The notes beneath the pieces are model-generated. The model was given only the letters and a program-made list of their open reading frames with translations, had not been told where the DNA came from and did not search any database. A program made the position numbers and the translations under genes. Of a stretch of 64,000 nucleotides of DNA, positions 25,104 to 64,000 are shown piece after piece (within the stretch, counting starts at the first letter, position 1; each line of letters starts with the position of its first letter). Source of the DNA: a virus (taxonomy: Duplodnaviria > Caudoviricetes). Location: the IMG/VR virus record IMGVR_UViG_3300048881_000698, positions 121,279 through 185,278 of that record; one strand, given 5' to 3'.

Positions 25104-25776
25104 TATCTACCTCCGCCAATCTATTATCGTATCTCTCTACTTCTTTTTTGTTATTGGTTCTATTATTTTCATGCATTCGATATTTGTATAAAGGCATCAA
25201 CAAATTGTACAAATTATATTTTTCTTTATATCTTGTCAAAAGCTCGTGACCTTCGCGCATTTTAAATTCTTCGTTATAAAAACCTATGCTACACAAAGAT
25301 TCATATGTAAACATTGTACCACAAGCAATAGGTTCTTCTGAAGATAGATGTCTGCTTAGAATGTTTCCAGCATTGTCAACTTTAAAATAATCACAAGCAG
25401 TAGCTTGGTAACTTTGACCGTCGCCCATTACCCTAGGGCCAGAGTTCATATCAAGAAAAGTGGAAAGTATATATAAGAAATGTTTCGACACATAATCATC
25501 TGAATCTACCCTGACAAAGTATTTTCCTAAAGAATTCTTAAGGACCATGTTTAACGATCCTGGTAGTCCGATATTCTCCGTATTATTTATTAATTTTATA
25601 TTCAAATATTCTTCTAGTGGTTTGCAAACTTCTTCTAATTGTTCTTCCGGATCATCATTTACAATAATAACTTCAAATTCATCCTTTGAAATTGTTTGCT
25701 TAGACAAACTTCTAAGGCAGCGATAAAGCCATTTTTTTTGTTTGTAACAACATATACCAACTGTTATCTTATACAT
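25096..25776 (-). CDS. Glycosyltransferase family 2
   Basis: EVIIVND, NIGLPGSLN, YFVRVDSDD (DxD motif). Confidence 0.9.
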   Translation of the reverse strand: MYKITVGICCYKQKKWLYRCLRSLSKQTISKDEFEVIIVNDDPEEQLEEVCKPLEEYLNIKLINNTENIGLPGSLNMVLKNSLGKYFVRVDSDDYVSKHFLYILSTFLDMNSGPRVMGDGQSYQATACDYFKVDNAGNILSRHLSSEEPIACGTMFTYESLCSIGFYNEEFKMREGHELLTRYKEKYNLYNLLMPLYKYRMHENNRTNNKKEVERYDNRLAEVDNG

Positions 25777-46618: not shown

Positions 46619-47425
46619 ATGCTCAGTAAACTCATGAAAATATGCTTAGTGCTTGCAGCCATTCTGTTATCTTCCTGCGTCTTGTATTGCTGTAAAGACT
46701 CTCTTCTTTCAAGCAAAAAATATTCATTAAATGAGATTTTACCTCGAGACTCGTTCGTAAAAATAAGAAAAACAATTAAATTAACTGTCTGCGATGCAAA
46801 TGTAACTAAATTAACGCAATGTGGGGAAAGAGTTATGGGATCGACAGCCTCCGGATTCATTGTTGCTTACGACAACGAAGGCTCTTATGTTATAACGGCA
46901 GCTCATGTATGTGATGATGAAGAAATAAAATCATATGTGAGGACTCACCCGGGTGTTGACTATTCAATAAGGCGATTTAAGTTAATTGATATTGATAAGG
47001 ATAAGTACTCCGCCATAGTATTAAATTATGATTCTGAAACTGATATTTGTATGCTTTATTCTTATGGGCTTTTTAGAACGCCAGTTAATATTTCTGATGA
47101 ACCTCCTGTTCCTGGCGACAGAGCATATAATTTAGCGGCGCCTATTGGAATATTTAGCGAAGGAATGGTTCCTATTCTCAATGGTTATTATAATGGCGTG
47201 GCAGAAGAAATTGCAATCTATTCAGTTCCTGCAGTTGGCGGCTCGTCAGGTTCTCCGATTTTTAATGAAAAAGGGGAACTAATAGGCATGATTCACTCAG
47301 TTTATGTCCGATTCCCGTTTCTTAGCTTATCACCAAGATTTAGTGAGCTAGTTTCGTTTATAAAGAACAATACCAACAAAGATATCTTGCTTCAGAAAAA
47401 GTTGTTTGAAAATCTTCTATTTTAG
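46619..47425 (+). CDS. Trypsin-like (S1) serine protease with signal/lipoprotein peptide
   Basis: ASGFIV, ITAAHV (His), DICML (Asp), GGSSGSP (Ser); N-terminal LLSSC. Confidence 0.9.
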   Translation: MLSKLMKICLVLAAILLSSCVLYCCKDSLLSSKKYSLNEILPRDSFVKIRKTIKLTVCDANVTKLTQCGERVMGSTASGFIVAYDNEGSYVITAAHVCDDEEIKSYVRTHPGVDYSIRRFKLIDIDKDKYSAIVLNYDSETDICMLYSYGLFRTPVNISDEPPVPGDRAYNLAAPIGIFSEGMVPILNGYYNGVAEEIAIYSVPAVGGSSGSPIFNEKGELIGMIHSVYVRFPFLSLSPRFSELVSFIKNNTNKDILLQKKLFENLLF

Positions 47426-47655: not shown

Positions 47656-48279
47656 TCAAATAATCTCGTCTACTAACCCATATTCAAGACAAGTTTCGGC
47701 ATCAAACCACAAATCATGCTTTAAGATCTCATTAAGCTTCTTTTTAGGAATTTTCGTGTGTTCATGGTATATATCCTTGATAATCCGCATGAAAAGATCA
47801 CAGTTGTCTATGCTATCTTTTAATTCTTCATATTTTCCCCACATGCCGGAAGAAATCTGGTGAACTAACATAAAAGAATTATTTCTTATCTGCCTGTGGG
47901 TACCTACCACACTGAAAAGAGTGGCTGCAGACGCCGCGCAGCCCTCGACTACAGTATATACCGGCACTTCGCACGATTTTACGTAATCTACAGCTGCCAA
48001 TCCTGAAAAGACGCTACCTCCGAAACTATTAATGTGCAAATATATATTTGCTGACTCTGGTAAGCTTAACAACTGTGCTTGGTTCAGTAAATTATCATTC
48101 AGGTTTCTTAACGACTTATTTAAATCAAGAATCCTTTGTCTCGAGACGTCTGAATAATAATATATTCTATTATTGACTGTTTCAACAATATTGTTTTTAT
48201 CGGAGGAGGCTCCAATCGGTATATCACTAGCTTTCGCTTTTTTGCCGGCACCTTCGCCGGCCCAAAATATATCTTTCAA
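47656..48279 (-). CDS. clpP: ClpP-family serine protease
   Basis: LHINSFGGSV, GCAASAAT (Ser), MLVHQ (His), DLWFDAETCLEYGLVDEII. Confidence 0.9.
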   Translation of the reverse strand: MKDIFWAGEGAGKKAKASDIPIGASSDKNNIVETVNNRIYYYSDVSRQRILDLNKSLRNLNDNLLNQAQLLSLPESANIYLHINSFGGSVFSGLAAVDYVKSCEVPVYTVVEGCAASAATLFSVVGTHRQIRNNSFMLVHQISSGMWGKYEELKDSIDNCDLFMRIIKDIYHEHTKIPKKKLNEILKHDLWFDAETCLEYGLVDEII

Positions 48280-49025: not shown

Positions 49026-50066
49026 TTATTCCCAGTCTAATCCACCCATGGTTAATATTGCAATTAAACCTGGGATATTTTCTTTAATATACACTCCAGA
49101 AAATAGTGTTTTTGTTCTTCCACCTACGTAAGAAATAGCAGCGTCGATATGTTTACTAACTTCTGGATTGTTTGCCATTTCTGGAGTGACAACGAACAAT
49201 ATAGCACCAGTATCGGGCTTTCCTTGCGGAACTGGACAAGGAGATTGTTTGATACAATTTTGAAAAATTGTAGCCCCTAAGTTAGATACTGACGGATCTT
49301 GAACCAATGCTGTACCGAGAAGCATCCTCTTTTTCGTTTTAAGACACTTTTCTAAGTCTTTTGAATCAAACGTTTGAATTGGGGAACTTTCTGAAGATAA
49401 TTTAAGAACTTGTCCCAACATCTTAGCAAATGCTGTATTAGCAGCAGGATAAAGGTTTAGCATACCAACTTTACCTCTGAGCATTTGAACCTGTTTTTCG
49501 TTACTTAAGGCAAGGTGTGGAAGGTTTGAAATATCCTTAAGAAGAGAATTGGCATTGTTTCTGATTGTATCATTAAGTGATTCTTGAGCAGTGGGAATTG
49601 TAGCTATATAAATCACCGTACCTGAAGCTTGAATCGATTTAAGATATCTTTCGAAAACGCTCTTAAGAGCAATTGCCGCAGAACCTGTTCCTCCACCTCC
49701 ACCTGTTAACACAAACAGCCAATCAACTTTTCCAAGCTTTGTTCTGAGCGCATCTTCAACAACTGTTCCGTTGTCTTTAAGGACCTTTTTGCCAAATACG
49801 ACGTCCTTTCCTACCCCATCAGAATCTGGAATTATAACTAAATGTTTTGGGTCTACACCCTCTGGTTGGTCTTTTTCAGTCGTATTAACAAGCAAAGTTT
49901 TGCTAAACCCCAAATCAATAAAAGCTTTAGCTAGTTTTCCACCTCCTCCGCCTAGGCCAACGAATCCGCAATTGATTGCAGAGACAGCTGTATTTTCTGA
50001 TAGTAGTTCATCACTAGTTTCTTCGGTTGTGGCTCCATAGTGGCCAACAAAATCAAAATCACTCAT
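49026..50066 (-). CDS. Tubulin/FtsZ-family GTPase (phage PhuZ/TubZ/CetZ-like)
   Basis: VGLGGGGGKLA (T1), VNT..D, GVGKD..G, GGGGGTGS (tubulin signature), FDSKDL (T7-like). Confidence 0.9.
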   Translation of the reverse strand: MSDFDFVGHYGATTEETSDELLSENTAVSAINCGFVGLGGGGGKLAKAFIDLGFSKTLLVNTTEKDQPEGVDPKHLVIIPDSDGVGKDVVFGKKVLKDNGTVVEDALRTKLGKVDWLFVLTGGGGGTGSAAIALKSVFERYLKSIQASGTVIYIATIPTAQESLNDTIRNNANSLLKDISNLPHLALSNEKQVQMLRGKVGMLNLYPAANTAFAKMLGQVLKLSSESSPIQTFDSKDLEKCLKTKKRMLLGTALVQDPSVSNLGATIFQNCIKQSPCPVPQGKPDTGAILFVVTPEMANNPEVSKHIDAAISYVGGRTKTLFSGVYIKENIPGLIAILTMGGLDWE

Positions 50067-50150
50067 TTTTTATTTTCTCCAATTTAATATTATATGCTAG
50101 GAGCCCATCCCTCTCGCTAGCGAATCCACCCTTAGGGTCATTCATTTTTG

Positions 50151-50223
<73 letters not shown>

Positions 50224-50237
50224 AAGATACAAAAATA

Positions 50238-50552
50238 TGGTGGAGGCGGTGGGAATCGAACCCACGTCCAAGAATCATCAAATATTCTATCATTCACAAG
50301 ATTATCTGGTTTTTGAACCAGCAAACTGCTTCGTAGCTAAGTTAAACGCGCGCACCACTTATTTTTAAGAAATAAGAAACTTTTTGCTAGTTTTGGGGAA
50401 TAAGGCCACTAGCAGCCTCAGATTACGCAGCTAAGGCGTAATCAACTTCAACGTTATCGTTGGCAGTTAAAAAGTTGAATGTTTATGCTGTGACACTCAC
50501 ACAGTCTTGCAAGAAATACTATCATTATCCCTGTCGAAACCAGGACGCCCCC
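50238..50552 (-). ncRNA. ssrA: tmRNA, tag (A)ANDNVEVDYALAA
   Basis: 5' GGGGGCG...TTCGAC; 3' GGTTCGATTCCCACCGCCTCCACCA with G3.U70; tag frame 50464-50423 after TAACT, ending YALAA-TAA. Confidence 0.95.
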
Positions 50553-51313: not shown

Positions 51314-52237
51314 TCATTTTTCATTCCAGGCCGGTTCTGATAGTGGGCCACCGGTAACTATAGCTTCCGGGAGGTCATCGTCATCATCCCAATATGGGCC
51401 TTCAAGTTCACCAGTAACTATGGGCTCTGGTACTGCTCTCATCATCCCCGCCGCTTCGAGTCTGGCTCTCTTCTCCGCGTCGGTCTCGCTTTCATTCTCT
51501 CCAGCTTCGGCAGCTGCAGCCCATGCTAGAGGAGCAGTTCTTTTCGGGATAAGTTTATTTGTTAAAGCAAAAGGATTACGGCCGAGGATATCGACTGGTT
51601 GTCTTAATCTTTGTGCAATATCTCGGCCCGGGTACATATATTGTTTTCTCAGGGCTGCCGGCAATCTTTTCCATGGTATTTTTGCTAATAGATTACTAGC
51701 CAGTTTAGATCCAGCTGCCATCTCTGCCCCGGCGCCCAATGCTAACATCTCCGCAGCTCCATATGGCATATCCTCAACCTTTTCAATATTTTGCCAGGTC
51801 ATTTGATCCATTGCATCTCGCGCTACATCCCAGTTCTTAGTATATTCTAAATATTGGCGCAACTCTTCTGGATCCCAGTACCGACCGCGGCCGCCAGACC
51901 TCATTGCTGCTCCTCCGCCGGCTTGCGATTGAAAAGGAAGCCAGTCCCACCCTGACTCGTTTAATGAACCTAAGACATCATGCAGTTCTTCTTTAATAAT
52001 TTCTTTTAAAGGTTGAGGCGGCATCATAGGCCCCACAGCCCTACCATATGTCTGCTGACCTAGTCCAATACTTAAGGGATCCGCACCGGTAACAGCTGAA
52101 GACAAATAATCAATGCTTATATCTAGGTTGTCTAATTTGCTCAATAACTTAGTTAATACTAACACTAATTTAGAGTTCGAATCATCATCCAACTCTTCTT
52201 TTATAATCGCGGTTAAATTTTGTTTTGTAAGTTTCAT
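51314..52237 (-). CDS. Putative internal head protein with MKLTK..L..IIKEE leader
   Basis: MKLTKQNLTAIIKEEL; internal repeat LKEIIKEEL...LNE. Confidence 0.7.
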   Translation of the reverse strand: MKLTKQNLTAIIKEELDDDSNSKLVLVLTKLLSKLDNLDISIDYLSSAVTGADPLSIGLGQQTYGRAVGPMMPPQPLKEIIKEELHDVLGSLNESGWDWLPFQSQAGGGAAMRSGGRGRYWDPEELRQYLEYTKNWDVARDAMDQMTWQNIEKVEDMPYGAAEMLALGAGAEMAAGSKLASNLLAKIPWKRLPAALRKQYMYPGRDIAQRLRQPVDILGRNPFALTNKLIPKRTAPLAWAAAAEAGENESETDAEKRARLEAAGMMRAVPEPIVTGELEGPYWDDDDDLPEAIVTGGPLSEPAWNEK

Positions 52238-52240
52238 TTT

Positions 52241-53071
52241 TTAAAACATATCCTTAAACCGGTTCCCCACCCAATTGGCTGCGCGGTTGATTTTATGACT
52301 TGCACTATCCCGGCCCGGCCGGCCCTTGGCCGCGGCCCAGCTGGGACCTGAAGAGACTCCAATATCTTTTTCAAACATTCTTTTCGCCGACGCGTCGAGT
52401 TCTTGGTTTATAGCTAGCTGGGGCGGTCTCTTTCTTCCTTTTAGCTTCGCATCTTTATACCAATCTTCCAGCCAATCGCCGATTGCGTACGATCCAAACG
52501 CTATTGTAGCTGGGTTCAATAGGGCCGGAGCAGCCGCGGCGGAGCCCCAAGAAGCAGCTGACGGAAGCGCCCCCGGTAATGGTCTAGCCATAGAAATCAA
52601 CTTCTCCGCGCCCGGTTCGATAAGTGCCTCTTCAGCAGCGAGTGCGGACCAGAAGGTCGCCGGCTCGAGATCCCACCTAGGACTGTACGTGTCCTTCGCG
52701 AAAGGTTTGCGAGGCCCAAACGCGTCTCTTCTGTTTTGTTCATATTCCTCTTCTGACAGATCGTAAAGATCTTGTACCGCTTTAGCATCAAGCTTTAAAT
52801 GACTGAGTTGCGAGGGAATCCACACTCTTTCCTGTTCTTTCTTCCACGCGGCGTACGCTTCCTGATATGCCTTCTCCTTCGCTTTCTTCGCCTTCCACTT
52901 TGCTAGATAGGCCGCTCGGTCGATCTTGCTGGGAGGTAATTTCAGGCCGCCGCGTTCCGGGGATTGTTCCTCCCAATATTCGTCTTCTGTCTGCAAAGGC
53001 CCAGCCGTGACAGTCCATTCATCTACTTCTTCTTTTATAAGCTTTACTAATTGTGATTTAGTTAGTTTCAT
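52241..53071 (-). CDS. Putative internal head protein with MKLTK..L..LIKEE leader
   Basis: MKLTKSQLVKLIKEEV; Ala/Gly-rich hydrophobic segment. Confidence 0.7.
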   Translation of the reverse strand: MKLTKSQLVKLIKEEVDEWTVTAGPLQTEDEYWEEQSPERGGLKLPPSKIDRAAYLAKWKAKKAKEKAYQEAYAAWKKEQERVWIPSQLSHLKLDAKAVQDLYDLSEEEYEQNRRDAFGPRKPFAKDTYSPRWDLEPATFWSALAAEEALIEPGAEKLISMARPLPGALPSAASWGSAAAAPALLNPATIAFGSYAIGDWLEDWYKDAKLKGRKRPPQLAINQELDASAKRMFEKDIGVSSGPSWAAAKGRPGRDSASHKINRAANWVGNRFKDMF

Positions 53072-53073
53072 TG

Positions 53074-53823
53074 CTACTCCATAGGAACCGGCGGTGCACC
53101 GGAAACTTCAGATCCAGGAGGAGCCTCAGGTATTTGCGTACGCGGCCGGCCAAAATTATCTTCTTCAAAATTCTCAAAGTAAATCTTAAGATTAATCAGC
53201 ATCCAATCTTTGTATACATCTCTGTCTTCAACAGAACCAATAAGTTTTCTATAAGCATTAGCAATTGGAGTTTTTATTTGACCTTTAAAGAAGTCCTTTG
53301 CATAACTATGACCTGTTGGATCCATACCCTCAACTGCTTCAAGGCCGGCGTCTTCACTAGCAGCTACTTCTTCTTTTTCAGCCTCTTTTTCAGCATGCGC
53401 AACCTTTTCCGGGCGAACCTCGATAAATTTCTCTTCATCTGGTGTATCATCTTCAATATCGATATCGATAGCCTCTTCAATGGTGCCGCCGGCATCAATA
53501 ATACCATCTAACTCTTGGAACAGATTTTCTACGAACTTCAAAATATGCTCTCTGAAAGATAATCTTTGAGCTTCATCTGTTTTCAAGCTTATATATTCTT
53601 TTTCCATATTCTCAACAAAAGACTTCAAAGTAACATCAAGAGCAACGACACCAGTTGAATCTCGTCCAAGACCTTGTTCCTTAATAACGCCCCTAACAAG
53701 CTTTTTAAGCTGCTTTTCTTCTTGTGTGTGTGACCCTTTTCTTTCGTTTACAACGCGAATAGCCTTGCGAATAGCTTTACGTAACAAAAGTTCTTCAATA
53801 AACTGTTTTCTATCAATTTGCAT
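53074..53823 (-). CDS. Acidic putative head-associated protein
   Basis: EELLLRKAIRKAIRVVNE and QLKKLVRGVIKE motifs; Glu-rich. Confidence 0.7.
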   Translation of the reverse strand: MQIDRKQFIEELLLRKAIRKAIRVVNERKGSHTQEEKQLKKLVRGVIKEQGLGRDSTGVVALDVTLKSFVENMEKEYISLKTDEAQRLSFREHILKFVENLFQELDGIIDAGGTIEEAIDIDIEDDTPDEEKFIEVRPEKVAHAEKEAEKEEVAASEDAGLEAVEGMDPTGHSYAKDFFKGQIKTPIANAYRKLIGSVEDRDVYKDWMLINLKIYFENFEEDNFGRPRTQIPEAPPGSEVSGAPPVPME

Positions 53824-56800
53824 CGATAATCTCCATGTGTGCTAGTAAATAGTTCAATACCTCTTCAATTTTCTCTATATTTTTCTCTATATTTTCTGAA
53901 TCATACTCAGGATCTTCTGCAGCAATTTCTCCCTCGCCTTCACCCTCGCCTTCGCCTTCACCGGCATATTCTTCTTCGTATTCATATTCTTCTTCATCTA
54001 CATCGTCATAAAATCCTGAATCTATGGCTTCTTCATGTCCAAGATCTCCCCCCTCGTCAGCGGTACCGCCTAAGCCCAGAATAGGATCCAGTTCTATTTC
54101 GCCCTGTGATACCACGTCGAAACTGGTGTCATGAGCCTCCATAAAAGCTCTTTGCTGTTCTTCCGTGGGATTAAGTACTCCTGATTCTATATATTTTATG
54201 CCCGCTAGCGTTGGCGTCTCATTAATGTATTTGTTCCATGTTTCATCAGATATATCTTCCTGCCACAGGTCTTCATAGCCGGTACCTACTCCAAACCTCT
54301 TTTGCCAAGCAAGAGGAGTCGTCATCTGCGCGCCTGCTTGAGCGTCAGAACCGGTATCCTGCGTTTTTGGTTGGGGTTCTGTTTCGCCAGCATAAGCTTT
54401 TTCGAAAAACTCCCTTGCTTTGTTATATAAATAACGTTCATTTGGTGTCAAATCATTCGGAGCGTTCGAAAATTTCAACACACCCTGCACAGGATCGAAA
54501 CGTATTTCACCAAATTTCCATTGGACGCCTTCAACGGCTTCATCAAATGTAAGCTTTTGATTACCGGTAAAATCTCTCATTTGCTGAAGCAGTTTTTCAG
54601 CTTTAGTTCCAGACACACTTGCCTCATTTAAATCTGTACTTTTTAAAACACGCTCTCCAACAAACACTCCCTTATTACCAGTTTGTTCATCCGTTGCACC
54701 TGCAAACCCATCCATCTTAATGGGCTCGTCAGGTTCTCTCCATGGACCACGATTTAACCCTGGTGCTCCCTCAACTGCTCCGGCGCCCATGGCCGAAATT
54801 TCATCGAGCTGCACATCGATCTCCAACTCCTCTTCTTTACCTTCCATCGCTACAAACGCATTTGATTGACCACCAACTCTTCTTGTTGCATAAGCCGTTC
54901 CGGGATCTTGAGGCCCGCGATCCAAGAGCCATTCATGTTCTTTTTTAAGATTTCTCTTCATTGTTCGTTGAAATTCTCCTTCGTTAGCTTCTTGCAAATT
55001 TGAATCATGATATTCAGGAGGAGGTATATCTTCCGGCCACGTGGGATCCGGTACCGTTACGGTTTTTGGTATTTCTGGTATTGATCGCGGCGGCGGCATG
55101 TCGACTATAAGAGGCAATTCCCACCACTTTAGCTGTGTCGCCGTCGGAGTCTGCGCGCCTTTATAATCTTCGTAATCTATTGGCTCATTTAAATCTATGC
55201 TTGCCAATTGTTCTTGGTAATCGCCTAGTTTTTTGGTAGAATTTTTATATTCCCGTTGTAGTTTTGTCAAATACCTGTTTCCCCAATTATACGCGCCGGC
55301 CACCGAGCGAGTGACCCCGTGCTTATTGGTAGCGTCTATCCAGCCCGGGCGCTTGCTTGCCCATCTTTCAAACATGTCGGCGCTAACTTTGCCCGGATTG
55401 TCTTTAAAAGCTTTGACTGCTACTGCAGGATCGCCCCCATATAGAGGTAAAAGATTCCAGCCTAATACTTGATATCGGCCCCACGCGCTTCCTGCAACAG
55501 CAGCAGCTGGGTTTATCTTGTAGAACTTATCATATGCATCTCGTGCTTTTTTATAATTATTTTTGCGCTTCCCGATGAAACTTTGCTGCTTGCCTTTCCA
55601 TGCTTTTGCGGTATCCCCACTTTTTGGACCCATCCCGATGCCGTCAAGCTCTTTTCTTAATTGCTTAAGCTTTTTAGGATCGTTTTTATATTTTTGATAT
55701 ATGTATTTTCTAGCAGAATGAGCATTGAAAGCAAAAGCCTGGGTCTTGCCTCCACTTGATTCAATTTGTTCAATTGCATAAATTACTGCTGGATTAACTC
55801 CCGTTCTCTTAGCAAGACGAAGGGTACGACCAATCCTTCCAGGACTTCTCAACCCTGTTGTCTGTTGAGTCGTAACAGCTGGTTTTGCGTCTGGAGACCC
55901 GGGACTGTAATCACTTGGCTGAGAGAGTTTCACTGGCGGAGGTCCTAGTTCTCCGCGGTCCAGCCATTGTACATCTTTCACCGATTTAGTTCCTAGTGCC
56001 AAATCTCTAATTGCCTGCATGTCCGGATCAGTTCGGTACCATTCATCATAATCGATATCTTTAGTTTTCGGTAAACCGGATTCGCCTGTTGTGAATCCGT
56101 GACCATGCTGTTCCTGTAACAAGCTCACTAACAATTCTTGAAGCGCTTCATTTGGCTGAGTTTCAATACCCAAGATATTGTATATTGCAACTTCTTGTTC
56201 TGCAGAAAGATCTTCCGTTGGTAAAAACACGTTTGATATTGTTTCTAGATCTCCAGCTTTAATTGCTATTCTAAAGTCAGTTGCGCTTAGTTCACCAAAA
56301 GGAACAACAGGGTAAGACCTAACTTGCACGCCTTCTTTTGCATAACTTTGTAAATTAGCAAATCTCTTATCATCTCCGCCTTTTGTGCTGGCGCCCATGA
56401 AAACGCAATCACCAGGCTGGGCCGGCCCATTTACTCCAATAAATTCGAGAGAAGCTTGCACCGGGGAATCAAAACCGCCGGCTTTTGAAAAATAAAGAGA
56501 TTTTTCATTACTCGAAGGCATGATGCTAATATCAACATTTGTTAGCCCTGCCGCGGCCTTGTAAATTTCCCAAATCTGCCTCGATTGTTCTGGCGTCACA
56601 TCAGCTTGAGTTTCCGGGTTGAAGCGCCATTTTTTGGCTTTTTTTAAGTTTCTTTTGCTAGCATTGATCGATGAAATCTGCACAAAGACCATTCCATCCG
56701 GACCCATGCTATCGGAATAGGCTTTGACCATCGCCATATGTCCTTTGTGAGGTGGCTTAAATGCCCCGGGAACGACCGCAAGCATGCGTTGACAACCTTC

Positions 56801-58123
56801 TGCGTCTATTTGCTCGTTCAGGCGCTTTAAGGACTCATTCTGTTGAAATGCAGAGATTTCTGTATATCCTTTCCACAAGAATTCCCCAGTAATTTTCAAT
56901 GGCTTCGGACCAAATAGTTTAGGATTTCTAAGTACTAGCCCTTCGTGTTCATCTACGCCTTGTCCTTCAATCCCCATGGCATCCGTTTTTAAAACTGCGA
57001 AAATGTCATTTCCCAACTTTCTTGTTGCATGATAAAAAATAGCTCCATCGATGGCCTTTTTAACATCACCGTCGGTAGCGCATGCAGGATCCGCAGAGCA
57101 CAATTCCAACCACCAGTTTTCTCCTTCGGCTAAAAGGTCGGTAATCAGTGTGCCTTCTAAAATCGCACCATATACAAACTTTCCTGGAGTTGGCGATTTT
57201 TTACCATCAACTAACGTTACTTTTTCCTCTTCTCCGGGATGATCTGCTTCTAAAAGCCAATCGCGAAGCGATTGAGTTCTAGAGACCACCTCTCCGGTTT
57301 CGGGATGCCGACCTAAATTAATCGTAAAATCAGTACTCAAAGTCTTTTCGAATTCGGGCGCCGCAACTGCATAAGACGGAACAGTTCCATATGCCTTAAA
57401 ATTATGTTTTTCAGCAATTGGCTGCAGCTTTTCGACTATACTTATCATCGAAGGATCATTTGCGCTAGACCTTATTTCTCTGCCTGCAGACTTCTTATCG
57501 ACATTCCCATATTTATCTACAGGTCTTGGCGCTCCAGGCCTAGACATCCCGCCGCCTCTAAAAGGAGTTTTTTGGTAGAATTGATTTAAACCATGAATTG
57601 CAATAAAATTGCCCTCGTAAGATGTTACATTCGTTTGCCCGGACACATATTCAGTATTAAAAAAAAGAGTCGGATCTTCGAGCATGCCGAGTTCTTTCAA
57701 TTCAGACCAAATTTGACCCGCACTAAGCAACTCGTTCATCATATTCAAAAGATCTGTATATTGCTTAGCTTGACCATGCGGTACCATCTCTCCTGTTTCA
57801 GGATTAACACTAGGCTTAAATCTCTGAGGTATTGCTTCCCCTGTTTCAGGGGATATCACGGGCTCTGCGGGTGTTAAAGATAAATTATCCACTGTAAACC
57901 CTTGTATATCGAGAGAACTCAAAGAACCTCTATCGCCAACAAATTCATATCCGCGAGCGCCCTTTATCAGTTTAAAACCAACGTTAGCCCCATCAAGTTT
58001 TATCGCTGCTGGGTTTTGCTGAACTTCTTGAGCTGCATGCTCAAAAACCTCAATCAAATCCTTACCAGTTTTAACTCGCGCGAGATCAAACGGGTGATCC
58101 ATATGTCCCGCTGGTCCGCCCAT
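53813..58123 (-). CDS. Multidomain polyprotein: ligase-like nucleotidyltransferase + HIGH-family nucleotidyltransferase + N-acetylmuramidase-like domain + acidic tail
   Basis: IKLDG...EGLVL...KITGEF; PGAFKPPHKGH...SATDFR; AIEQIESSGG...SAWGRYQVLGWN; LNE/LQE motifs at the boundaries. Confidence 0.8.
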   Translation of the reverse strand: MGGPAGHMDHPFDLARVKTGKDLIEVFEHAAQEVQQNPAAIKLDGANVGFKLIKGARGYEFVGDRGSLSSLDIQGFTVDNLSLTPAEPVISPETGEAIPQRFKPSVNPETGEMVPHGQAKQYTDLLNMMNELLSAGQIWSELKELGMLEDPTLFFNTEYVSGQTNVTSYEGNFIAIHGLNQFYQKTPFRGGGMSRPGAPRPVDKYGNVDKKSAGREIRSSANDPSMISIVEKLQPIAEKHNFKAYGTVPSYAVAAPEFEKTLSTDFTINLGRHPETGEVVSRTQSLRDWLLEADHPGEEEKVTLVDGKKSPTPGKFVYGAILEGTLITDLLAEGENWWLELCSADPACATDGDVKKAIDGAIFYHATRKLGNDIFAVLKTDAMGIEGQGVDEHEGLVLRNPKLFGPKPLKITGEFLWKGYTEISAFQQNESLKRLNEQIDAEGCQRMLAVVPGAFKPPHKGHMAMVKAYSDSMGPDGMVFVQISSINASKRNLKKAKKWRFNPETQADVTPEQSRQIWEIYKAAAGLTNVDISIMPSSNEKSLYFSKAGGFDSPVQASLEFIGVNGPAQPGDCVFMGASTKGGDDKRFANLQSYAKEGVQVRSYPVVPFGELSATDFRIAIKAGDLETISNVFLPTEDLSAEQEVAIYNILGIETQPNEALQELLVSLLQEQHGHGFTTGESGLPKTKDIDYDEWYRTDPDMQAIRDLALGTKSVKDVQWLDRGELGPPPVKLSQPSDYSPGSPDAKPAVTTQQTTGLRSPGRIGRTLRLAKRTGVNPAVIYAIEQIESSGGKTQAFAFNAHSARKYIYQKYKNDPKKLKQLRKELDGIGMGPKSGDTAKAWKGKQQSFIGKRKNNYKKARDAYDKFYKINPAAAVAGSAWGRYQVLGWNLLPLYGGDPAVAVKAFKDNPGKVSADMFERWASKRPGWIDATNKHGVTRSVAGAYNWGNRYLTKLQREYKNSTKKLGDYQEQLASIDLNEPIDYEDYKGAQTPTATQLKWWELPLIVDMPPPRSIPEIPKTVTVPDPTWPEDIPPPEYHDSNLQEANEGEFQRTMKRNLKKEHEWLLDRGPQDPGTAYATRRVGGQSNAFVAMEGKEEELEIDVQLDEISAMGAGAVEGAPGLNRGPWREPDEPIKMDGFAGATDEQTGNKGVFVGERVLKSTDLNEASVSGTKAEKLLQQMRDFTGNQKLTFDEAVEGVQWKFGEIRFDPVQGVLKFSNAPNDLTPNERYLYNKAREFFEKAYAGETEPQPKTQDTGSDAQAGAQMTTPLAWQKRFGVGTGYEDLWQEDISDETWNKYINETPTLAGIKYIESGVLNPTEEQQRAFMEAHDTSFDVVSQGEIELDPILGLGGTADEGGDLGHEEAIDSGFYDDVDEEEYEYEEEYAGEGEGEGEGEGEIAAEDPEYDSENIEKNIEKIEEVLNYLLAHMEIIDAN
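53930..54010 (-). repeat. Low-complexity coding repeat (EG)n / EEY
   Basis: ccctcgccttcaccctcgccttcgccttcacc encodes GEGEGEGEGE. Confidence 0.7.
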
Positions 58124-58126
58124 GAT

Positions 58127-58402
58127 TTATACTCCTGTATCTTTCTTAGTTCTGACGGGTTTTCTTTTAGTTCTAGCTTTAGGTTTTGGCTTAACTGCAG
58201 CCTCTTCTACGACAGGTTCAGGTTCTACAACCTCTTCTACGATAGGGTCGACCTTTTCTATGATAGGTTCAGACTCTACAACATTTTCGAAAACCTCTTT
58301 TACTGTTTGAATAACTTTTTCTGCAATTACATCTTCTTTGTTTGGTATTCCTTGGGTCTTGGCCACCATCGCTATTTTCCAAAGTTTTTTTCGTTTTGCC
58401 AT
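58127..58402 (-). CDS. Small protein with E/P/V repeats and a basic tail
   Basis: VVESEPIIEKVDPIVEEVVEPEPVVEE then KPKPKARTKRK; AAGGAG RBS. Confidence 0.75.
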   Translation of the reverse strand: MAKRKKLWKIAMVAKTQGIPNKEDVIAEKVIQTVKEVFENVVESEPIIEKVDPIVEEVVEPEPVVEEAAVKPKPKARTKRKPVRTKKDTGV

Positions 58403-58413
58403 TTGTTAACTCC

Positions 58414-60042
58414 TTATTGTTTTGCAAAAGCTTTTTTTAGCTTATTGAATTTTTCTTCAAATATTTGTTCTTGATAAGACTTGGCAGATTCTATTCTTTC
58501 TGCTATTGGCGGCTTTGGTGGTTCCGGCTCAAAATCTTCTATGTCATCCAGATCACCAAGATCCTTTTCCGCAGGTTTCAGCCCGGGGATCGGCGGGGTT
58601 GGTTCAGGTATATCCCGCGGCAGATCTGCGACTTCCGGAACGTCTAGTTCGGCTAATAGAATTTTATTAATCATATCTTTGATCGCGGATTCCTGCTGAG
58701 GTTGCTCCGGAAGCAACTCGTGACACTGTTTAAGCCCATGTTTTTTAAGATATTTCGACTGGCCGAGGCCAGACATGCTCGAGCAATTGCTGTAAGCTTG
58801 TTGTTGTCGCCTCAGCACTTCTTTCGGCGACAATTTAGACCGTTTCTGCTTTAACTTCTTCCGCGCTCCGATTTCATCGGCAGTTTGATCCACCGTCTCC
58901 GCGTTTGATATTACAGCGGACGGGTCTGCATCTGCAGAGCAAGGGACAGGGCCATGGCCATAATCACATTCGGCTTTATTCCCACGTATACCTTTCTTTT
59001 TAAGCGCTTCCACCGGACTTGAATAATCTATCCCAAGAGCCCACAGCGCTAGAGGCTCGAGCAACTTTCGACGGATCGGTCCACCCCTAGGTATATTCGG
59101 AATACACTTCCCCTTATTTGGGCCGTCCTGATATTCCACACACGAATTCCAATCGAAGACAACATAGCCCACGCCGAAAGCCGCCATGGAGGCCTTCACC
59201 GCCGATGAGAAGCGCGCACCCGGATCTTTTATATCCCCCACCGCTTTTGTGATTGCCGCTATTGTTTGCTCGCCGGCTTCTATCTGAACGGCCAATGATT
59301 CACCGCTCTTCACTGCTCCTTGTCGCGCCGCATCGATTGTTGAATCGACCACTTGTTTTTCAGCAGTTCCCGCGACATCAGATTGAAGCTTTGGCTTTGG
59401 CCGGCCCCGCAAATTGGAAAACTCCGGAAAAAGCCTCTGTGCCTCTGCAGAATCCATAATTCTGGTTACCTCTCTCATAGCATGAGCAAGTTCGTTTTCC
59501 TCTACGTACATCCGTAATTCGGATGGAACTTCCACTCCCATGTCATCAACTTCAGTCGAATAATGTTTTATAAATCTCATAAATCTAGGATTGTTCATAT
59601 GATCGGAAAACTCCGCCGCGGCCATAGTTTCGTTCGCAGCAAGCTTCTCCCCAATATCATCCGCTGTTTGTTTTCTCACCACCGGTAGATTTGGAAAACC
59701 TTTGTGAGGGCCCGGTTCCGAAACTGGCAGCTCTTCACCAGTCCATCGTCGCTGATTTGGATCGATCCAGGCCGGATCTGCCTTTTCTGGTGCGTACCCA
59801 GTTCCTCCATGTTGCCCATGTGGACCCGGCGCATCTGGATGCCGCGGAGGAGGCTTCGGGAGATCTACACCAGGGAGATCCCCACCACCGCGTTTCCTAA
59901 TCCACCAATCCCGGAACTCTTTTCCGGCGGTTCCAAGTGTATCCATAAACCAGCCTTCGTCAAGCAACTGTTGGAAACGTTTGTCGCGCGCTAGCTCCTC
60001 AACAATTATAGTTTTCAATTCTTGTTTATTTATTTTCAACAT
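58414..60042 (-). CDS. Putative internal head protein with related leader
   Basis: MLKINKQELKTIIVEEL...LLDE; internal IKDMINKILLAE. Confidence 0.7.
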   Translation of the reverse strand: MLKINKQELKTIIVEELARDKRFQQLLDEGWFMDTLGTAGKEFRDWWIRKRGGGDLPGVDLPKPPPRHPDAPGPHGQHGGTGYAPEKADPAWIDPNQRRWTGEELPVSEPGPHKGFPNLPVVRKQTADDIGEKLAANETMAAAEFSDHMNNPRFMRFIKHYSTEVDDMGVEVPSELRMYVEENELAHAMREVTRIMDSAEAQRLFPEFSNLRGRPKPKLQSDVAGTAEKQVVDSTIDAARQGAVKSGESLAVQIEAGEQTIAAITKAVGDIKDPGARFSSAVKASMAAFGVGYVVFDWNSCVEYQDGPNKGKCIPNIPRGGPIRRKLLEPLALWALGIDYSSPVEALKKKGIRGNKAECDYGHGPVPCSADADPSAVISNAETVDQTADEIGARKKLKQKRSKLSPKEVLRRQQQAYSNCSSMSGLGQSKYLKKHGLKQCHELLPEQPQQESAIKDMINKILLAELDVPEVADLPRDIPEPTPPIPGLKPAEKDLGDLDDIEDFEPEPPKPPIAERIESAKSYQEQIFEEKFNKLKKAFAKQ

Positions 60043-62200
60043 TAACTTGTCCTCGATTTTGTTTTATTTGTTCAAACGCTGCAGCATGATTGTCCGCGGA
60101 ATCTAAAATTTTGATTTCCTGCGGTGTCAATTGATAGGTATCGATCCTTTTTTGACGCGCAACTTCTCGTTCTTGTCTTCTTAATTCCCTCACGCGACTA
60201 GAATCTCCGCCATAAGCTTTGTCCAACGGCAAACGAGGATAATGCTGAGATCCATGTTGTTTTTCTTGGCGCCTACGGTCACGCATCAGCGCTGCCTCTA
60301 GACTCTGAGCCTCTCCCCAATCAGTCGTTGGATCTTTTGCAATTTGCCCGCCGGCGGCAATGGGATCTTTGACTGACTTCCATGGCCATCGAATCGGGGC
60401 ATTCTCTGCTGCCCAGTCAGCGGCCTTGCCTATACCATAACCCGCCATAGCGGCGACGGCGGGAACAGGAGCCGCTAGCGCTGCACCACCCAATGCGAGC
60501 CACTCAGCGGCGGGCAGCCATGCTGTTTTTAAAAGATTTTTTGGGTGCCCTTTATGTCCGAAAATGCCACTACTAATTGGACGTGCCCATGGGCTGTTAT
60601 ATGCGTCAGTGGTAACTTCGATATCTTTAAGATCTTCCAGATATTGCTTTAACATCCGCGAAGTTTCCTCCGGGTTCGATCCCTTAATCCATCGGCCAGG
60701 ATCGCGCCCCCATGGTCCCTTTTCGTGGTCTAATGTACGTTGATCAGTATAAGCTGATGCAGGAAGTTTTTCTGGCCCCCAATAAGTCGGTTCTACATGA
60801 TAATGTTCGTACTCAGAAGCTACACTTGCTTTTTGATCTCTAAGCCATTGAGCTTCTCGGTCGGCCTGGGTTGGGACATATGCATAGGGCATTTTCTTCC
60901 CCGTCGACGGATCTATAACAGGTTCATATGTTTCCGGATCTCTAATATACAGAGGTTCTCCGGGGCGAGAAAATGCTTTAGAAAGAACGTCTTTTGCATA
61001 TAGTTTGCCGGCTTTATGCCTGTAATGTGATCCGTCGGGCGCCAGGCCAAAGTTGCCTTTTAATTTCGCGAACTCTGGATTATCGTCAATCGTATTATCC
61101 ATATTATGAAATCTGATGCCAAGCTCCCTAGCTGTTTCTTTGTATGCTCCATTAATGAGTCCGCGCCCAACCGGGTTTGGAGTCCTCCCGGCCTCTTTCT
61201 TTTTGCTTGGCGGCAATCCAAAGAATTCTATTGGCGCGCCTAGGCTCTGCAGATTTTTCATGAAAGGTATAATTCTCTCTTGTCTAAAATGCTCATATAC
61301 GGGAATGAGTCTTTTGATGCGCGCCGCATCAGTTTCACCTGGTCTTGCTTTCTTTTGCCCCTTCCAGTTACGAATAAAGCCCGCGAACTTCCTTTGGTCG
61401 GGGCTTTCATTTCCACCAAAAGAGACAATAATCTTATCATATTTGTGACGATAAAGCTTTTCGCGATCTCCTTCCGAATCCCAACCCCTTCTCTTAGTCA
61501 TCTTACCGGTATATTTTTTACCACCAAATACGTTGTCGTTCCAATACCAACTCCGGCTTGATGTTTGAGCCGCCCTTACAACTGTCGCGCCTCTTGCGCG
61601 AAGCATCTTCTCTAGGTTTTTACCTATAGGTCCTTTCATATGGGAGTCACCAACAAGTAATATTTTTTGTCCTTCTAAATCTCGAACTTGAGCGTTTCCA
61701 CCAACTTTGGCAGTTACTTCGTTAAGCATTGTTCGAAGGCCTTTTTTAAGTGTTTTTCTTATTTTTCTTTCTTGTAATTGCGTGACTTTTTGTTTGAACA
61801 TATCTTCCCAATCTCTAAAAATCAAATTTCCAAGTTTATATGCTTCTTCTTCCATACCTCTCAAGTGACCGTCTTTTTGAGCATAACCTAAACTAGTATC
61901 CCCAATTGAGTCGAACTCCCCTCTGCAATTTTGAGCGTGGTGAACCAGTTCGTGTGAGAGGGATCTAAGAACATCTTTTGGATGCCGACCATCTGTGAAT
62001 AATGTTACTGACATTCCATCTGGATCGTATTGGGCCGTTTTGCCAAGTATATTTTGTGCATTTTCTGAATCTGATTGAAAAATAATGTCCACTGGTTGAT
62101 CGAAACCCAGTTGTTGTTCGGCGTAAGGAAAGAAGGTACCGGCCATTTTTTTCAGACCAGTTAAGCTGTCGACAGACTGATTTATAATATTGCAAGGCAT
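60026..62200 (-). CDS. HExxH metallopeptidase-like domain + SGNH/GDSL hydrolase + hydrophobic C-terminal region
   Basis: LSHELVHHAQ...EEEAY; linker LQERKIRKTLKKGLRTMLNE; LLVGDSH, SFGGNE, DGSHY. Confidence 0.8.
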   Translation of the reverse strand: MPCNIINQSVDSLTGLKKMAGTFFPYAEQQLGFDQPVDIIFQSDSENAQNILGKTAQYDPDGMSVTLFTDGRHPKDVLRSLSHELVHHAQNCRGEFDSIGDTSLGYAQKDGHLRGMEEEAYKLGNLIFRDWEDMFKQKVTQLQERKIRKTLKKGLRTMLNEVTAKVGGNAQVRDLEGQKILLVGDSHMKGPIGKNLEKMLRARGATVVRAAQTSSRSWYWNDNVFGGKKYTGKMTKRRGWDSEGDREKLYRHKYDKIIVSFGGNESPDQRKFAGFIRNWKGQKKARPGETDAARIKRLIPVYEHFRQERIIPFMKNLQSLGAPIEFFGLPPSKKKEAGRTPNPVGRGLINGAYKETARELGIRFHNMDNTIDDNPEFAKLKGNFGLAPDGSHYRHKAGKLYAKDVLSKAFSRPGEPLYIRDPETYEPVIDPSTGKKMPYAYVPTQADREAQWLRDQKASVASEYEHYHVEPTYWGPEKLPASAYTDQRTLDHEKGPWGRDPGRWIKGSNPEETSRMLKQYLEDLKDIEVTTDAYNSPWARPISSGIFGHKGHPKNLLKTAWLPAAEWLALGGAALAAPVPAVAAMAGYGIGKAADWAAENAPIRWPWKSVKDPIAAGGQIAKDPTTDWGEAQSLEAALMRDRRRQEKQHGSQHYPRLPLDKAYGGDSSRVRELRRQEREVARQKRIDTYQLTPQEIKILDSADNHAAAFEQIKQNRGQVNVENK

Positions 62201-62207
62201 AACTATC

Positions 62208-62217
62208 TTAAATAGTT
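62208..62217 (-). promoter_or_regulatory. Candidate late-promoter motif AACTATTTAA
   Basis: 7 nt upstream of the ATG heading the head-protein cluster; no clear Shine-Dalgarno. Confidence 0.45.
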
Positions 62218-62273: not shown

Positions 62274-64000
62274 TTATTCACAAACAGTGTTGTCTAAAAT
62301 CTGCATCAAGTTGTTAAATATTTCTTCTGGATTACTTGTCAGCTCGAACCACTGGCCATTTCCGACTTGGCAGAGGTTCTCCCAACCTACGTATGTACCA
62401 TCCCAATGAGCAGCATTAGCAGTAGACGTTGGGCTAAAAACGAACACGCTCAAATCTTTTACGCCGCCTTCAAGTTTAAGCAAAATATCATTTGTTATTT
62501 GAGGGTTCATATAACTCTGCGCAGTTTCATCTGTAAAAATAACAACAACTTTGTTAGTCTCTTTTGGAAGACCTCTCCAGCTTAATTTGAATTTGGGTAT
62601 GACTGGATCGGAATAGATTATTGTCCCATACATTGACGTCCAAGATATCTCGTCGTCGCCGTATTCAACTGAACTTGGATTAGCAATATTAGTAAGAGAA
62701 AGATACAACGCATCATATAACATTTCTCGAGATCCGTCGACTTGACTAAAATCAGTCGAAGTCAGCGCTGTTAAAAATGCGCTAAAAGCAGAAAAATTAT
62801 GTTTAATTTTTAAGGCTTCAGCTACATATGAAGTTCCATTTTCAGCAATAAGTTGTTCCCACATGGGACCATAAATCAATCCCCATTTGATTACATCTTC
62901 ATCGCTGTAATATAATGCAAACATATTTAATGCGCTAACGATAGCGTCAATCTCATCGTTCATAGAACCGGAGGTGTCTAATATGAATAATATATCTGTA
63001 TCGTTCATATCATCTTCAAGTTCGCCATCACAATTATCATCCAATCCATTACAAAGTTCTTCTGGTAATGGTAAAACTTCGTTCATACACAGATCGTCGA
63101 TAAAAATTTCTTCAATGAAGTTGCCCCATTTTCCTGCACTACACATTAAATTACCAGCCTTGCATATACCAATATTTAATGTTTCCGGAGGGCCGGTATA
63201 ACATGCTTTAAATAAGTCTTCATCAATTTCCCCGTCACAATCATCATCATGATTATTGCATATTTCTGATATTATAATTCCTTTTTGTTCATCACAAATA
63301 ATATCTGGAGGAGGAGGAAAATAATAACAAGTAGCTTTGCATTGTGTCATCCCAAATTCAGCACACATTTGACCTTCTGGCGGCGCAACTGCGCATTCAC
63401 AAGTTTTATATCCTTGTCCACAAATTAACGGATCTTCCATGCAAGGTACCAATATACCAACATCTGCGGCACTACAAAAACAATCTAAACCTTCATCTAT
63501 GCTTCCATCACAATCATCATCTTCGGAATTGCACCATTCCTCAATTGGTTGTTGTGCTGTGCAGCTTGACCACATCCCGCTAAGGCATATTTCGTAACCT
63601 TTTTCGCAAACTGTCTCGCACTCTTGAAGTAAATCTTCATCCATTAGTCCATTACAATCATTATCAATTCCATCACACACCTCTTCCGGGATCGATCCAC
63701 ATTTATCACATGCGTTTCTTTGGTGTTCGTCAACTTCATTATCGCAATCATCATCCAGATAATTACAGATTTCTTCTTCTGGTTCTTCCGCTGTACAGAT
63801 TATCTCACCTTCAATACAATATGCTGGTGCAGTTTCGCAGACTGTTGTACATTCATACGCCCCTTCATCGATGTTGCCATCGCAATCGTTGTCTTCTAGA
63901 TCACAAATTTCGCTATCATCACATTTTTTACAATCTGTTAGATCGACTTTTCCTTTATCACAAATAACATACTGTTGCCCGGGAAATTCGTCTTCTGTTT
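62274..64000 (-). CDS. Cys/Asp-rich repeat (C-D/N-G-x-D-N/D-D-C-D/N-G-x-x-D-E) protein with C-terminal vWA domain; 5' end lies beyond the window
   Basis: At least 6 repeats such as CDGIDNDCNGLMDE and CNNHDDDCDGEIDE; MIDAS motif DTSGSM and VIFTDE; the frame stays open from 63680 to the window end. Confidence 0.85.
   Translation of the reverse strand, partial: TEDEFPGQQYVICDKGKVDLTDCKKCDDSEICDLEDNDCDGNIDEGAYECTTVCETAPAYCIEGEIICTAEEPEEEICNYLDDDCDNEVDEHQRNACDKCGSIPEEVCDGIDNDCNGLMDEDLLQECETVCEKGYEICLSGMWSSCTAQQPIEEWCNSEDDDCDGSIDEGLDCFCSAADVGILVPCMEDPLICGQGYKTCECAVAPPEGQMCAEFGMTQCKATCYYFPPPPDIICDEQKGIIISEICNNHDDDCDGEIDEDLFKACYTGPPETLNIGICKAGNLMCSAGKWGNFIEEIFIDDLCMNEVLPLPEELCNGLDDNCDGELEDDMNDTDILFILDTSGSMNDEIDAIVSALNMFALYYSDEDVIKWGLIYGPMWEQLIAENGTSYVAEALKIKHNFSAFSAFLTALTSTDFSQVDGSREMLYDALYLSLTNIANPSSVEYGDDEISWTSMYGTIIYSDPVIPKFKLSWRGLPKETNKVVVIFTDETAQSYMNPQITNDILLKLEGGVKDLSVFVFSPTSTANAAHWDGTYVGWENLCQVGNGQWFELTSNPEEIFNNLMQILDNTVCE

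Follow-up and report, generated by a model that had tools for sequence, protein, structure and literature searches.

In bacteriophage T4, the head protease gp21 strips from the internal proteins and Alt the N-terminal propeptides of 10-19 residues by which they are directed to the prohead core (PMC9026906, PMC5694885), cutting after Glu in (L/I)-x-E (PMC9026906, PMC5694885, PMC3012670). This capsid-targeting sequence (CTS) is found on the internal proteins IPI, IPII and IPIII and in the Alt propeptides, from which it is removed by gp21 (Mullaney and Black 1996, via PMC9026906, PMC3012670), and its residues 8 and 10 control processing, Asp at residue 10 having a blocking effect (PMC9026906). 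The principle of loading a head by means of such a tag, including the packaging of foreign proteins and protein delivery, is already established for the T4 tag. In phiKZ-like giant phages, ejection or inner-body paralogs (SPN3US gp53 and gp54, phiKZ gp93) share N-terminal propeptides cut by an S80 protease at A/S/G-x-E, and the propeptide gets cleaved into small pieces (PMC5694885). A third point of reference is provided by the polyvalent proteins of phages and conjugative elements (Iyer, Burroughs, Anand, de Souza and Aravind 2017, PMC5512222). Here we describe a short N-terminal peptide, termed leader-1, which heads unrelated proteins of an uncultured, marine, T4-like phage (IMG/VR record IMGVR_UViG_3300048881_000698; 185,278 bp), three of them encoded in the final 64 kb of that record (positions 121,279 to 185,278; this stretch of 64,000 nucleotides is hereafter the window), and which is most likely, by analogy, a new sequence version of T4's known capsid-loading tag. 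What appears to be new is that there are two such tag sequences, that they co-occur, that they are spread broadly through uncultured marine phages and that they are also placed at domain boundaries inside proteins.

A scan of all open reading frames (ORFs) in the whole genome identified nine that start MKLTKxQLxxIIKEEL. Three lie in the window, four at genome positions 2087-1 and the remaining two singly, at 25573 and 93904. A preliminary description of the window had reported the three found there (ORFs 51314-52237, 52241-53071 and 58414-60042) as shared leaders on otherwise dissimilar genes; all three were confirmed, and the dissimilarity extends to the full set of nine, whose leader-free bodies show no mutual similarity (best BLASTP E 0.07). 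When a profile built from the nine leaders was run over all six frames of the genome, the leaders scored 33-46 bits, each at the first Met following a stop, and beyond these and one internal copy the top score was 7.6 bits; chance is therefore excluded for the recurrence of leader-1. As had been predicted, the leader thus lies at N-termini with the exception of that internal copy (residues 75-90 of a protein of 307 amino acids (aa); 14.4 bits, or 17.2 bits in a repeat scan). It is also the one of five proposed internal recurrences to survive, the four others, in the 249-aa, 724-aa and 1436-aa proteins of the window, failing the profile. Different codons were used in 43% of identical-residue codon pairs within leader-1, and because synonymous codons vary so freely, selection acts on the peptide rather than on DNA or RNA. 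The spacing of hydrophobic residues (8, 11/12, 16 and 19/20) fits an amphipathic or coiled-coil helix, which is too weakly hydrophobic for a signal peptide. Among the ORFs of this genome, shared N-termini define three families only, none of them T4-like.

The peptide is widespread in related phages. A profile search of 1.84 billion metagenomic cluster representatives (E up to 0.001) placed leader-1 at the head of at least 2,417 protein clusters in public metagenomes, and a degenerate DNA pattern scan of IMG/VR returned at least 120 loci, with 150 of the 150 listed matches coinciding with ORF starts. In an unbiased sample from relatives, 197 copies are N-terminal and 9 of 206 internal, Met-Lys being conserved, and the tagged bodies are short (median 117 aa) and hypervariable, their number and position differing between close relatives. 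Near-complete relatives (~185 kb) possess 5-10 tagged genes apiece, often in tandem, and CheckV places all 30 of the tag-bearing contigs examined in large genomes. Hydrophobic 19-mers, taken as possible membrane-insertion segments, were present in 2 of 13 cluster proteins and 12 of 150 representatives, which is below the genome average, and body charge and isoelectric point were uninformative. By capsid protein, the closest cultured relatives are Microcystis phage Mel-JY01, Flavobacterium phage immuto and Rhodothermus phage RM378, with ~50% identity to the immuto and Mel-JY01 versions, and immuto (vB_FspM_immuto) encodes two weak tag variants at the N-termini of hypothetical proteins, the products of immuto35A_175 and immuto35A_190. 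A literature search with the tag as a string recovered unrelated peptides only, and we found no paper tying a CTS to marine T4-like phages or describing either tag.

Key to interpreting this peptide is the protease that might remove it. The prohead protease postulated in the preliminary description is encoded at genome positions 86735-87343 and belongs to the T4 gp21 family (Peptidase_S77, PF03420, 113.7 bits); together with a gp23-type capsid protein (genome 82272-84041), it shares a module with the terminase, the portal and a gene in the scaffold position. A gp21-type protease was also found in 15 of the 30 tag-bearing contigs, including both that are CheckV-complete, the others being rated 11-85% complete. 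Leader-1 ends in the hydrophobic-x-Glu motif of the gp21 family, as had been claimed. Across 253 non-redundant tagged proteins, I-K-E14 occurs in all collected copies, its position being fixed by the collecting DNA pattern and regular expression, while a further hydrophobic-x-Glu ends at residue 22 in 45% of copies and at residue 21 in 15%, relative to a background in the bodies of 2.3% per position (binomial p about 1e-114), and conservation stops abruptly after this second Glu (residue 21-22). The P3 residue is Ile at residue 12, and at residue 20 Leu, Met, Ile and Val together account for ~59% of copies. Leader-1 does not have the Ser, Ala or Gly at P3 that phiKZ-type processing requires, and the (S/A/G)-x-E rule of phiKZ, which had been cited alongside that of T4, is inapplicable to this T4-like phage with its Ile, Leu, Val or Met at P3.

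The protease family itself begins with invariant L6-x-E8 and L22-x-E24 motifs and two conserved Cys, in parallel with LIE-9 of T4 gp21 (PMC9026906), and this N-terminal segment may be a self-cleaved targeting propeptide. Conserved N-proximal hydrophobic-x-Glu motifs were likewise identified in two conserved head-module proteins, p277 and p150. A derivation of leader-1 from the p150 N-terminus was considered and found to be weakly supported (best 8.6 bits, own copy -2.4 bits). Within the tagged bodies of relatives, [L/I]-x-E occurs at 0.91 of expectation (95% interval 0.77-1.05), compared to 1.23 in other ORFs of the same loci and 1.27 in size-matched small ORFs, whereas [L/I]-x-D reaches 1.41 in the tagged bodies versus 1.07 in other ORFs, a pattern that would be expected if cleavable sites were avoided through Asp. 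When the protease was modelled in complex with residues 1-40 of a tagged protein, each partner being supplied as an alignment, the score was 0.00, which is evidence neither way.

A second peptide, leader-2 (MKxLFENWRxYLxE), is unrelated to leader-1 and starts ~10 genes at genome 22410-33232, with one leader-1 gene in the middle of the array. In IMG/VR it was found at no fewer than 119 loci, 40 of which (40/119) also contain a leader-1 gene. A hydrophobic-x-Glu ends at residue 14 in 83% of copies, with nothing conserved beyond; the search pattern fixed nine residues, and this motif lies outside them. Since both tags combine a Met-Lys start with hydrophobic-x-Glu at residue 14, two unrelated peptides thus converge and travel together. 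Leader-2 bodies are larger than those of leader-1 (median 210 aa) and include enzyme domains, and in this genome they contain [L/I]-x-E at 0.77 of expectation and its Asp form at 1.49. In one 730-aa leader-2 protein, an internal copy of the tag stands just before a nucleotidyltransferase domain.

Set against the T4 CTS, leader-1 is alike in being a short peptide starting with Met-Lys at the N-terminus of unrelated, fast-evolving proteins, in its (L/I)-x-Glu end and in a length that falls within the 10-19 residues of T4 propeptides, and both genomes encode a gp21-family protease and tagged genes that vary in number and position. Differences lie in the longer tag (first Glu at residue 14, second at residue 22), in two unrelated tag families of ~9 and ~10 members as opposed to 3-4 members in T4, in the additional occurrence of tags internally and as inter-domain linkers, and in the distant uncultured lineage of this putative system. 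Similarities to the phiKZ-like propeptides consist of the same N-terminal propeptide, more than one Glu-ended site and a divergent remainder; here, however, the protease is of the S77 (T4) type, P3 is Ile, Leu, Val or Met rather than Ala, Ser or Gly, and the genome is T4-like. With the polyvalent proteins, the tagged cluster of the window may share large, putatively late proteins that join a HExxH metallopeptidase-like domain, an esterase and a muramidase, as well as the recurrence of the HExxH domain with many different fusion partners, but many domains here form separate tagged genes rather than one giant polypeptide.

The cluster comprises seven tightly packed ORFs at window positions 51314-62200 (307, 276, 249, 1436, 91, 542 and 724 aa), in a window whose genes are almost all on the minus strand. 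Joining the contig ends yields an open frame with no stop and no overlap, in which a leader ORF at genome 328-1, encoding the first 109 aa, continues into window 62274-63998 to give a protein of 684 aa; the record, listed as linear in IMG/VR, is therefore a complete, circularly permuted genome, and the window cluster and the four leader-1 genes at the other contig end form a single block with 7 tagged genes. Recognisable domains in the cluster are few: the muramidase of the 1436-aa protein, the HExxH and GDSL/SGNH regions of the 724-aa protein and MopE-type Cys repeats at 62274-63998. The features are as follows, in window positions.

51314..52237 (-): 307-aa protein consisting, in this order, of leader-1, a conserved ~50-aa 'SIDYL' module, an internal copy of the leader and a variable tail
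52172..52237 (-): leader-1 of the 307-aa protein, residues 1-22 (43 bits in the leader profile)
51956..52015 (-): internal Met-less leader-1 copy of the 307-aa protein, residues 75-94, ending L-N-E
52241..53071 (-): 276-aa protein with leader-1 and no known domain
53006..53071 (-): leader-1 of the 276-aa protein, residues 1-22 (61 bits in the repeat profile scan)
53074..53823 (-): 249-aa protein with no profile-supported leader, first gene of a three-gene unit behind the promoter-like motif
53846..53852 (-): promoter-like motif CTATTTA, 29 nucleotides (nt) upstream of the 249-aa gene
53813..58123 (-): leaderless multidomain protein of 1436 aa, in which residues 778-961 form a muramidase domain (Pfam PF11860 and PHROG endolysin matches)
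58127..58402 (-): 91-aa protein with no family match
58414..60042 (-): 542-aa protein with a divergent leader-1 (additional residue after Met; 33-48 bits), poorly foldable
59974..60042 (-): leader-1 variant of the 542-aa protein, residues 1-23
60026..62200 (-): 724-aa protein with a conserved HExxH N-domain, helical linker, SGNH esterase domain and disordered tail
61718..61777 (-): linker of the 724-aa protein, holding its sole two [L/I]-x-E motifs (LQE144 and LNE161)
62209..62215 (-): promoter-like motif CTATTTA, 15 nt upstream of the 724-aa gene
62274..63998 (-): C-terminal 574 aa of the 684-aa leader-1 protein, with MopE-type Cys repeats (Pfam PF11617) and a further C-terminal region

Searches with the larger proteins of the cluster returned little. 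The 1436-aa protein had no PDB sequence match and no useful match by tblastn among GenBank phages, and the 542-aa protein had no relatives in IMG/VR, no useful tblastn match among GenBank phages and no usable protein Atlas match, its Atlas model reaching a predicted local distance difference test (pLDDT) score of 0.40.

Genomic context ties the tagged genes to head assembly loci. Clustering their neighbours in the 120 IMG/VR loci identified terminase (53 loci), portal (49), a 183-aa protein (47), p277 (27), the protease (21) and p206 (21) as the commonest, and in 55 of the 120 loci the tagged genes lie inside a p183-terminase-portal-p277-p206-p103-protease block, on the same strand and in varying slots, for example in the p103/protease gap, directly after the protease, in the portal/p277 gap or before the terminase. 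The tagged gene at 93904 in this genome sits in such a head-module slot. A recurring enzyme partner was sought by the same clustering, and none emerged beyond head-module genes and the protease. As an observation on the module itself, it also contains a gene resembling that of ribosomal protein S21 (genome 86065-86286), located between those for the protease and the scaffold, and in Microcystis phage Mel-JY01 the gene at the corresponding place is annotated RpsU.

Upstream sequences provide a second link. CTATTTA is the most enriched upstream 7-mer in the genome (21 genes versus 1.9 expected). It is found 30-50 nt ahead of the genes for the tail sheath, the tail tube, the head-tail adaptor-like protein and the scaffold-position protein. 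It also precedes four leader-1 genes and, in the window, those of the 249-aa and 724-aa proteins, so that the window cluster can be read as two units behind the motif, 724-542-91-1436 and 249-276-307. The most enriched upstream motif, ACTATTTA, has 40 of its 47 copies on the coding strand and represents a candidate late promoter unlike T4's TATAAATA. In relatives, the motif lies within 60 nt upstream of 31 of 146 tagged genes, compared to 107 of 1,194 other ORFs (odds ratio 2.7, p = 3e-5). The enrichment of the leader in late genes that had been expected would agree with the promoter-like motif that tagged, sheath, tube and scaffold genes have in common, lateness itself being read from gene identity.

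By analogy with T4, we consider it probable that leader-1 is a T4-style capsid-targeting propeptide removed by the head protease. Our computations provide the tag family with its strict N-terminal place and its end motif, the gene for the protease, the context in the head module and the sharing of a promoter-like motif; docking, cleavage and ejection are supplied by the T4 precedent. Under such a mechanism, tagged proteins would be produced late, and their amphipathic N-terminal helix would dock them on the scaffolding core during prohead assembly, where the gp21-type protease would cut after Glu14 and/or Glu22 and free the body within the head. Some bodies, together with the neighbouring untagged muramidase and HExxH-SGNH proteins, would then probably exit with the DNA at infection, and leader-2 would act likewise. 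Leader-2 bodies, like the untagged muramidase and esterase proteins, have more the look of delivered enzymes, and leader-1 bodies that of small internal proteins.

Several observations weigh against this interpretation. Compared by eye, leader-1 and the T4 CTS have no sequence similarity beyond Met-Lys and hydrophobic-x-Glu, and the exact tag was not found in cultured phages by tblastn of GenBank phages. Amphipathic helices naturally give the hydrophobic-x-Glu pattern too, and the leader-1 bodies of this genome are undepleted in [L/I]-x-E (observed/expected 1.33). CTATTTA is a putative late promoter solely by virtue of which genes carry it. Conserved internal copies in some proteins are unneeded for simple N-terminal targeting. 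Finally, nearly all leader-1 bodies are without a recognised fold (any Pfam match in 4 of 150 representatives, to S_100 and, in 1, a holin), so the term 'effector cargo' is unsupported for leader-1: the variable cargo envisaged in the preliminary description is indeed made up of unrelated bodies, but these are mostly small proteins of unknown fold and not recognisable effectors.

The alternative that fares best, although we regard it as rather unlikely, is that tagged proteins are accessories of the prohead core or scaffold, comparable to T4 gp67, gp68 and internal peptides, which are degraded or expelled by the protease and not delivered. Such a role would agree with the location of tagged genes between portal, protease and scaffold genes in many relatives, with bodies that are short, mildly acidic and poorly foldable, with the [L/I]-x-E-rich leader-1 bodies of this genome, and with the similar N-proximal hydrophobic-x-Glu helices of p277 and p150 in the head module. 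Essential assembly parts would not, however, be expected to have hypervariable bodies or to shift in number and position between close relatives, and the avoidance of [L/I]-x-E by bodies in relatives, the Cys-repeat domains of the 684-aa tagged protein, the enzyme domains behind leader-2 and the weak resemblance of the tag to the p150 N-terminus all argue against it. It is less probable again that the tag is a docking or recognition peptide for other machinery, such as a modifying enzyme, a chaperone or the membrane and lysis apparatus, with its proximity to head genes reflecting a hotspot for late-gene insertion: spanin-like and membrane-protein genes do recur near tagged genes, but the recurring partners found by neighbour clustering were head-module genes and the protease, with no enzyme among the rest, the tag is insufficiently hydrophobic for a signal peptide, and both tags, though unrelated, have a Glu-specific end motif on which they converge at one and the same position. 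Least probable of all is that the tag is a remnant of fast-evolving paralogs, an oligomerisation helix kept on the mature protein with no role in targeting or cleavage, which would suit the amphipathic or coiled-coil spacing and the duplication suggested by tandem arrays, but not bodies without detectable common origin (including MopE-type Cys-repeat and HExxH-domain proteins), an almost invariable place at the extreme N-terminus with Met-Lys kept (197 N-terminal versus 9 internal) or the sharp end of conservation after Glu.

Candidate cut sites at domain boundaries, another element of the preliminary description, were recovered in the two L-x-E sites of the 724-aa protein, although its helices are not leader copies by profile. 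Pfam matches of this protein (the HExxH region and a GDSL/SGNH esterase) all fall under curated cut-offs, and a PDB sequence search with it was empty. Its two [L/I]-x-E motifs, compared to 5.6 expected (p = 0.08), both lie in the linker at residues 142-161, and an AlphaFold (AF2) model places them at the end of a helix (111-165) leaving the well-folded N-domain, followed directly by a low-confidence hinge (167-171) and then the SGNH domain, which Foldseek relates to SGNH esterases including the peptidoglycan O-acetyltransferase PatB. More than 371 metagenomic proteins contain the highly conserved HExxH N-domain (residues 21-136, window 61790-62140) in fusion with M23, M15, LysM, peptidoglycan-binding or SGNH modules, and in Flavobacterium phage immuto the domain lies within a 907-aa multidomain protein annotated NadR. 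In one homolog of the 724-aa protein, a profile-supported leader-1 copy serves as the linker. The linkers after HExxH in most other homologs had seemed by eye to be leader-1 or leader-2, a candidate that was dropped when only that one protein passed the profile.

The 307-aa protein provides a second example. Its relatives consist of a tag, a conserved ~50-aa module, a second tag and a variable tail, with a full second leader at that position, and in a low-confidence AF2 model of the protein both tags are discrete helices followed by breaks (leader helix 5-16, break 17-18). The module, LDxSIDYLxAAxTG...GR (residues 23-66, window 52040-52170), has two flanking leader copies in most homologs. Many top database matches carry two to four tags, and in one metagenomic ORF a homolog of the 276-aa C-terminus is joined to a homolog of the 307-aa protein, the two genes being neighbours here. 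Most internal copies retain Met and a ribosome-binding site, and internal copies may be recent fusions or internal starts. A Glu preceding internal Met-tag copies was examined as an upstream cut site and rejected, the DNA revealing the Glu/Gly codons as the Shine-Dalgarno sequence of formerly separate genes. Because tags occur as inter-domain linkers, because a 50-aa module is flanked by two of them, and because adjacent genes appear fused in one ORF, we put forward, as a speculation that is on balance doubtful, that the tags are portable, protease-excisable cassettes which let genes fuse into polyproteins, or split again, at tag boundaries with function retained, and that the two tags may sort classes of cargo, possibly small structural or internal proteins on the one hand and enzymes on the other.

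If leader-1 and leader-2 do function as targeting propeptides, two short peptides would flag head-loaded proteins in marine T4-like phages, a group that is large and abundant but almost wholly uncultured, and thousands of 'hypothetical proteins' would become candidate internal or ejected virion proteins. Packaged phage proteins, perhaps with anti-defence and takeover functions among them, could then be recognised from sequence only. The T4 loading mechanism would also prove to have greater age and flexibility than one would expect from its ten-residue E. coli version, with a repertoire much larger than that of T4. Were cassette exchange and sorting also to hold, the packaged proteome of thousands of uncultured marine T4-like phages would be readable from sequence alone.

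Elsewhere, the window encodes a gp25 baseplate protein, giant tail proteins, glycosyltransferases, PhoH, ClpP, a tubulin-like gene, a transfer RNA (tRNA) and a transfer-messenger RNA (tmRNA). The tubulin/FtsZ-like gene adjoins the cluster (window 49026-50066), with a Pfam match under the curated cut-off, and no link between it and the tags was found. Near the cluster are also the genes for ClpP (47656-48279) and a trypsin-like protease (46619-47425), and directly downstream of it lie a tRNA-Ala (GGC) and the tmRNA, the latter with the tag ANDNVEVDYALAA (window 50150-50552).

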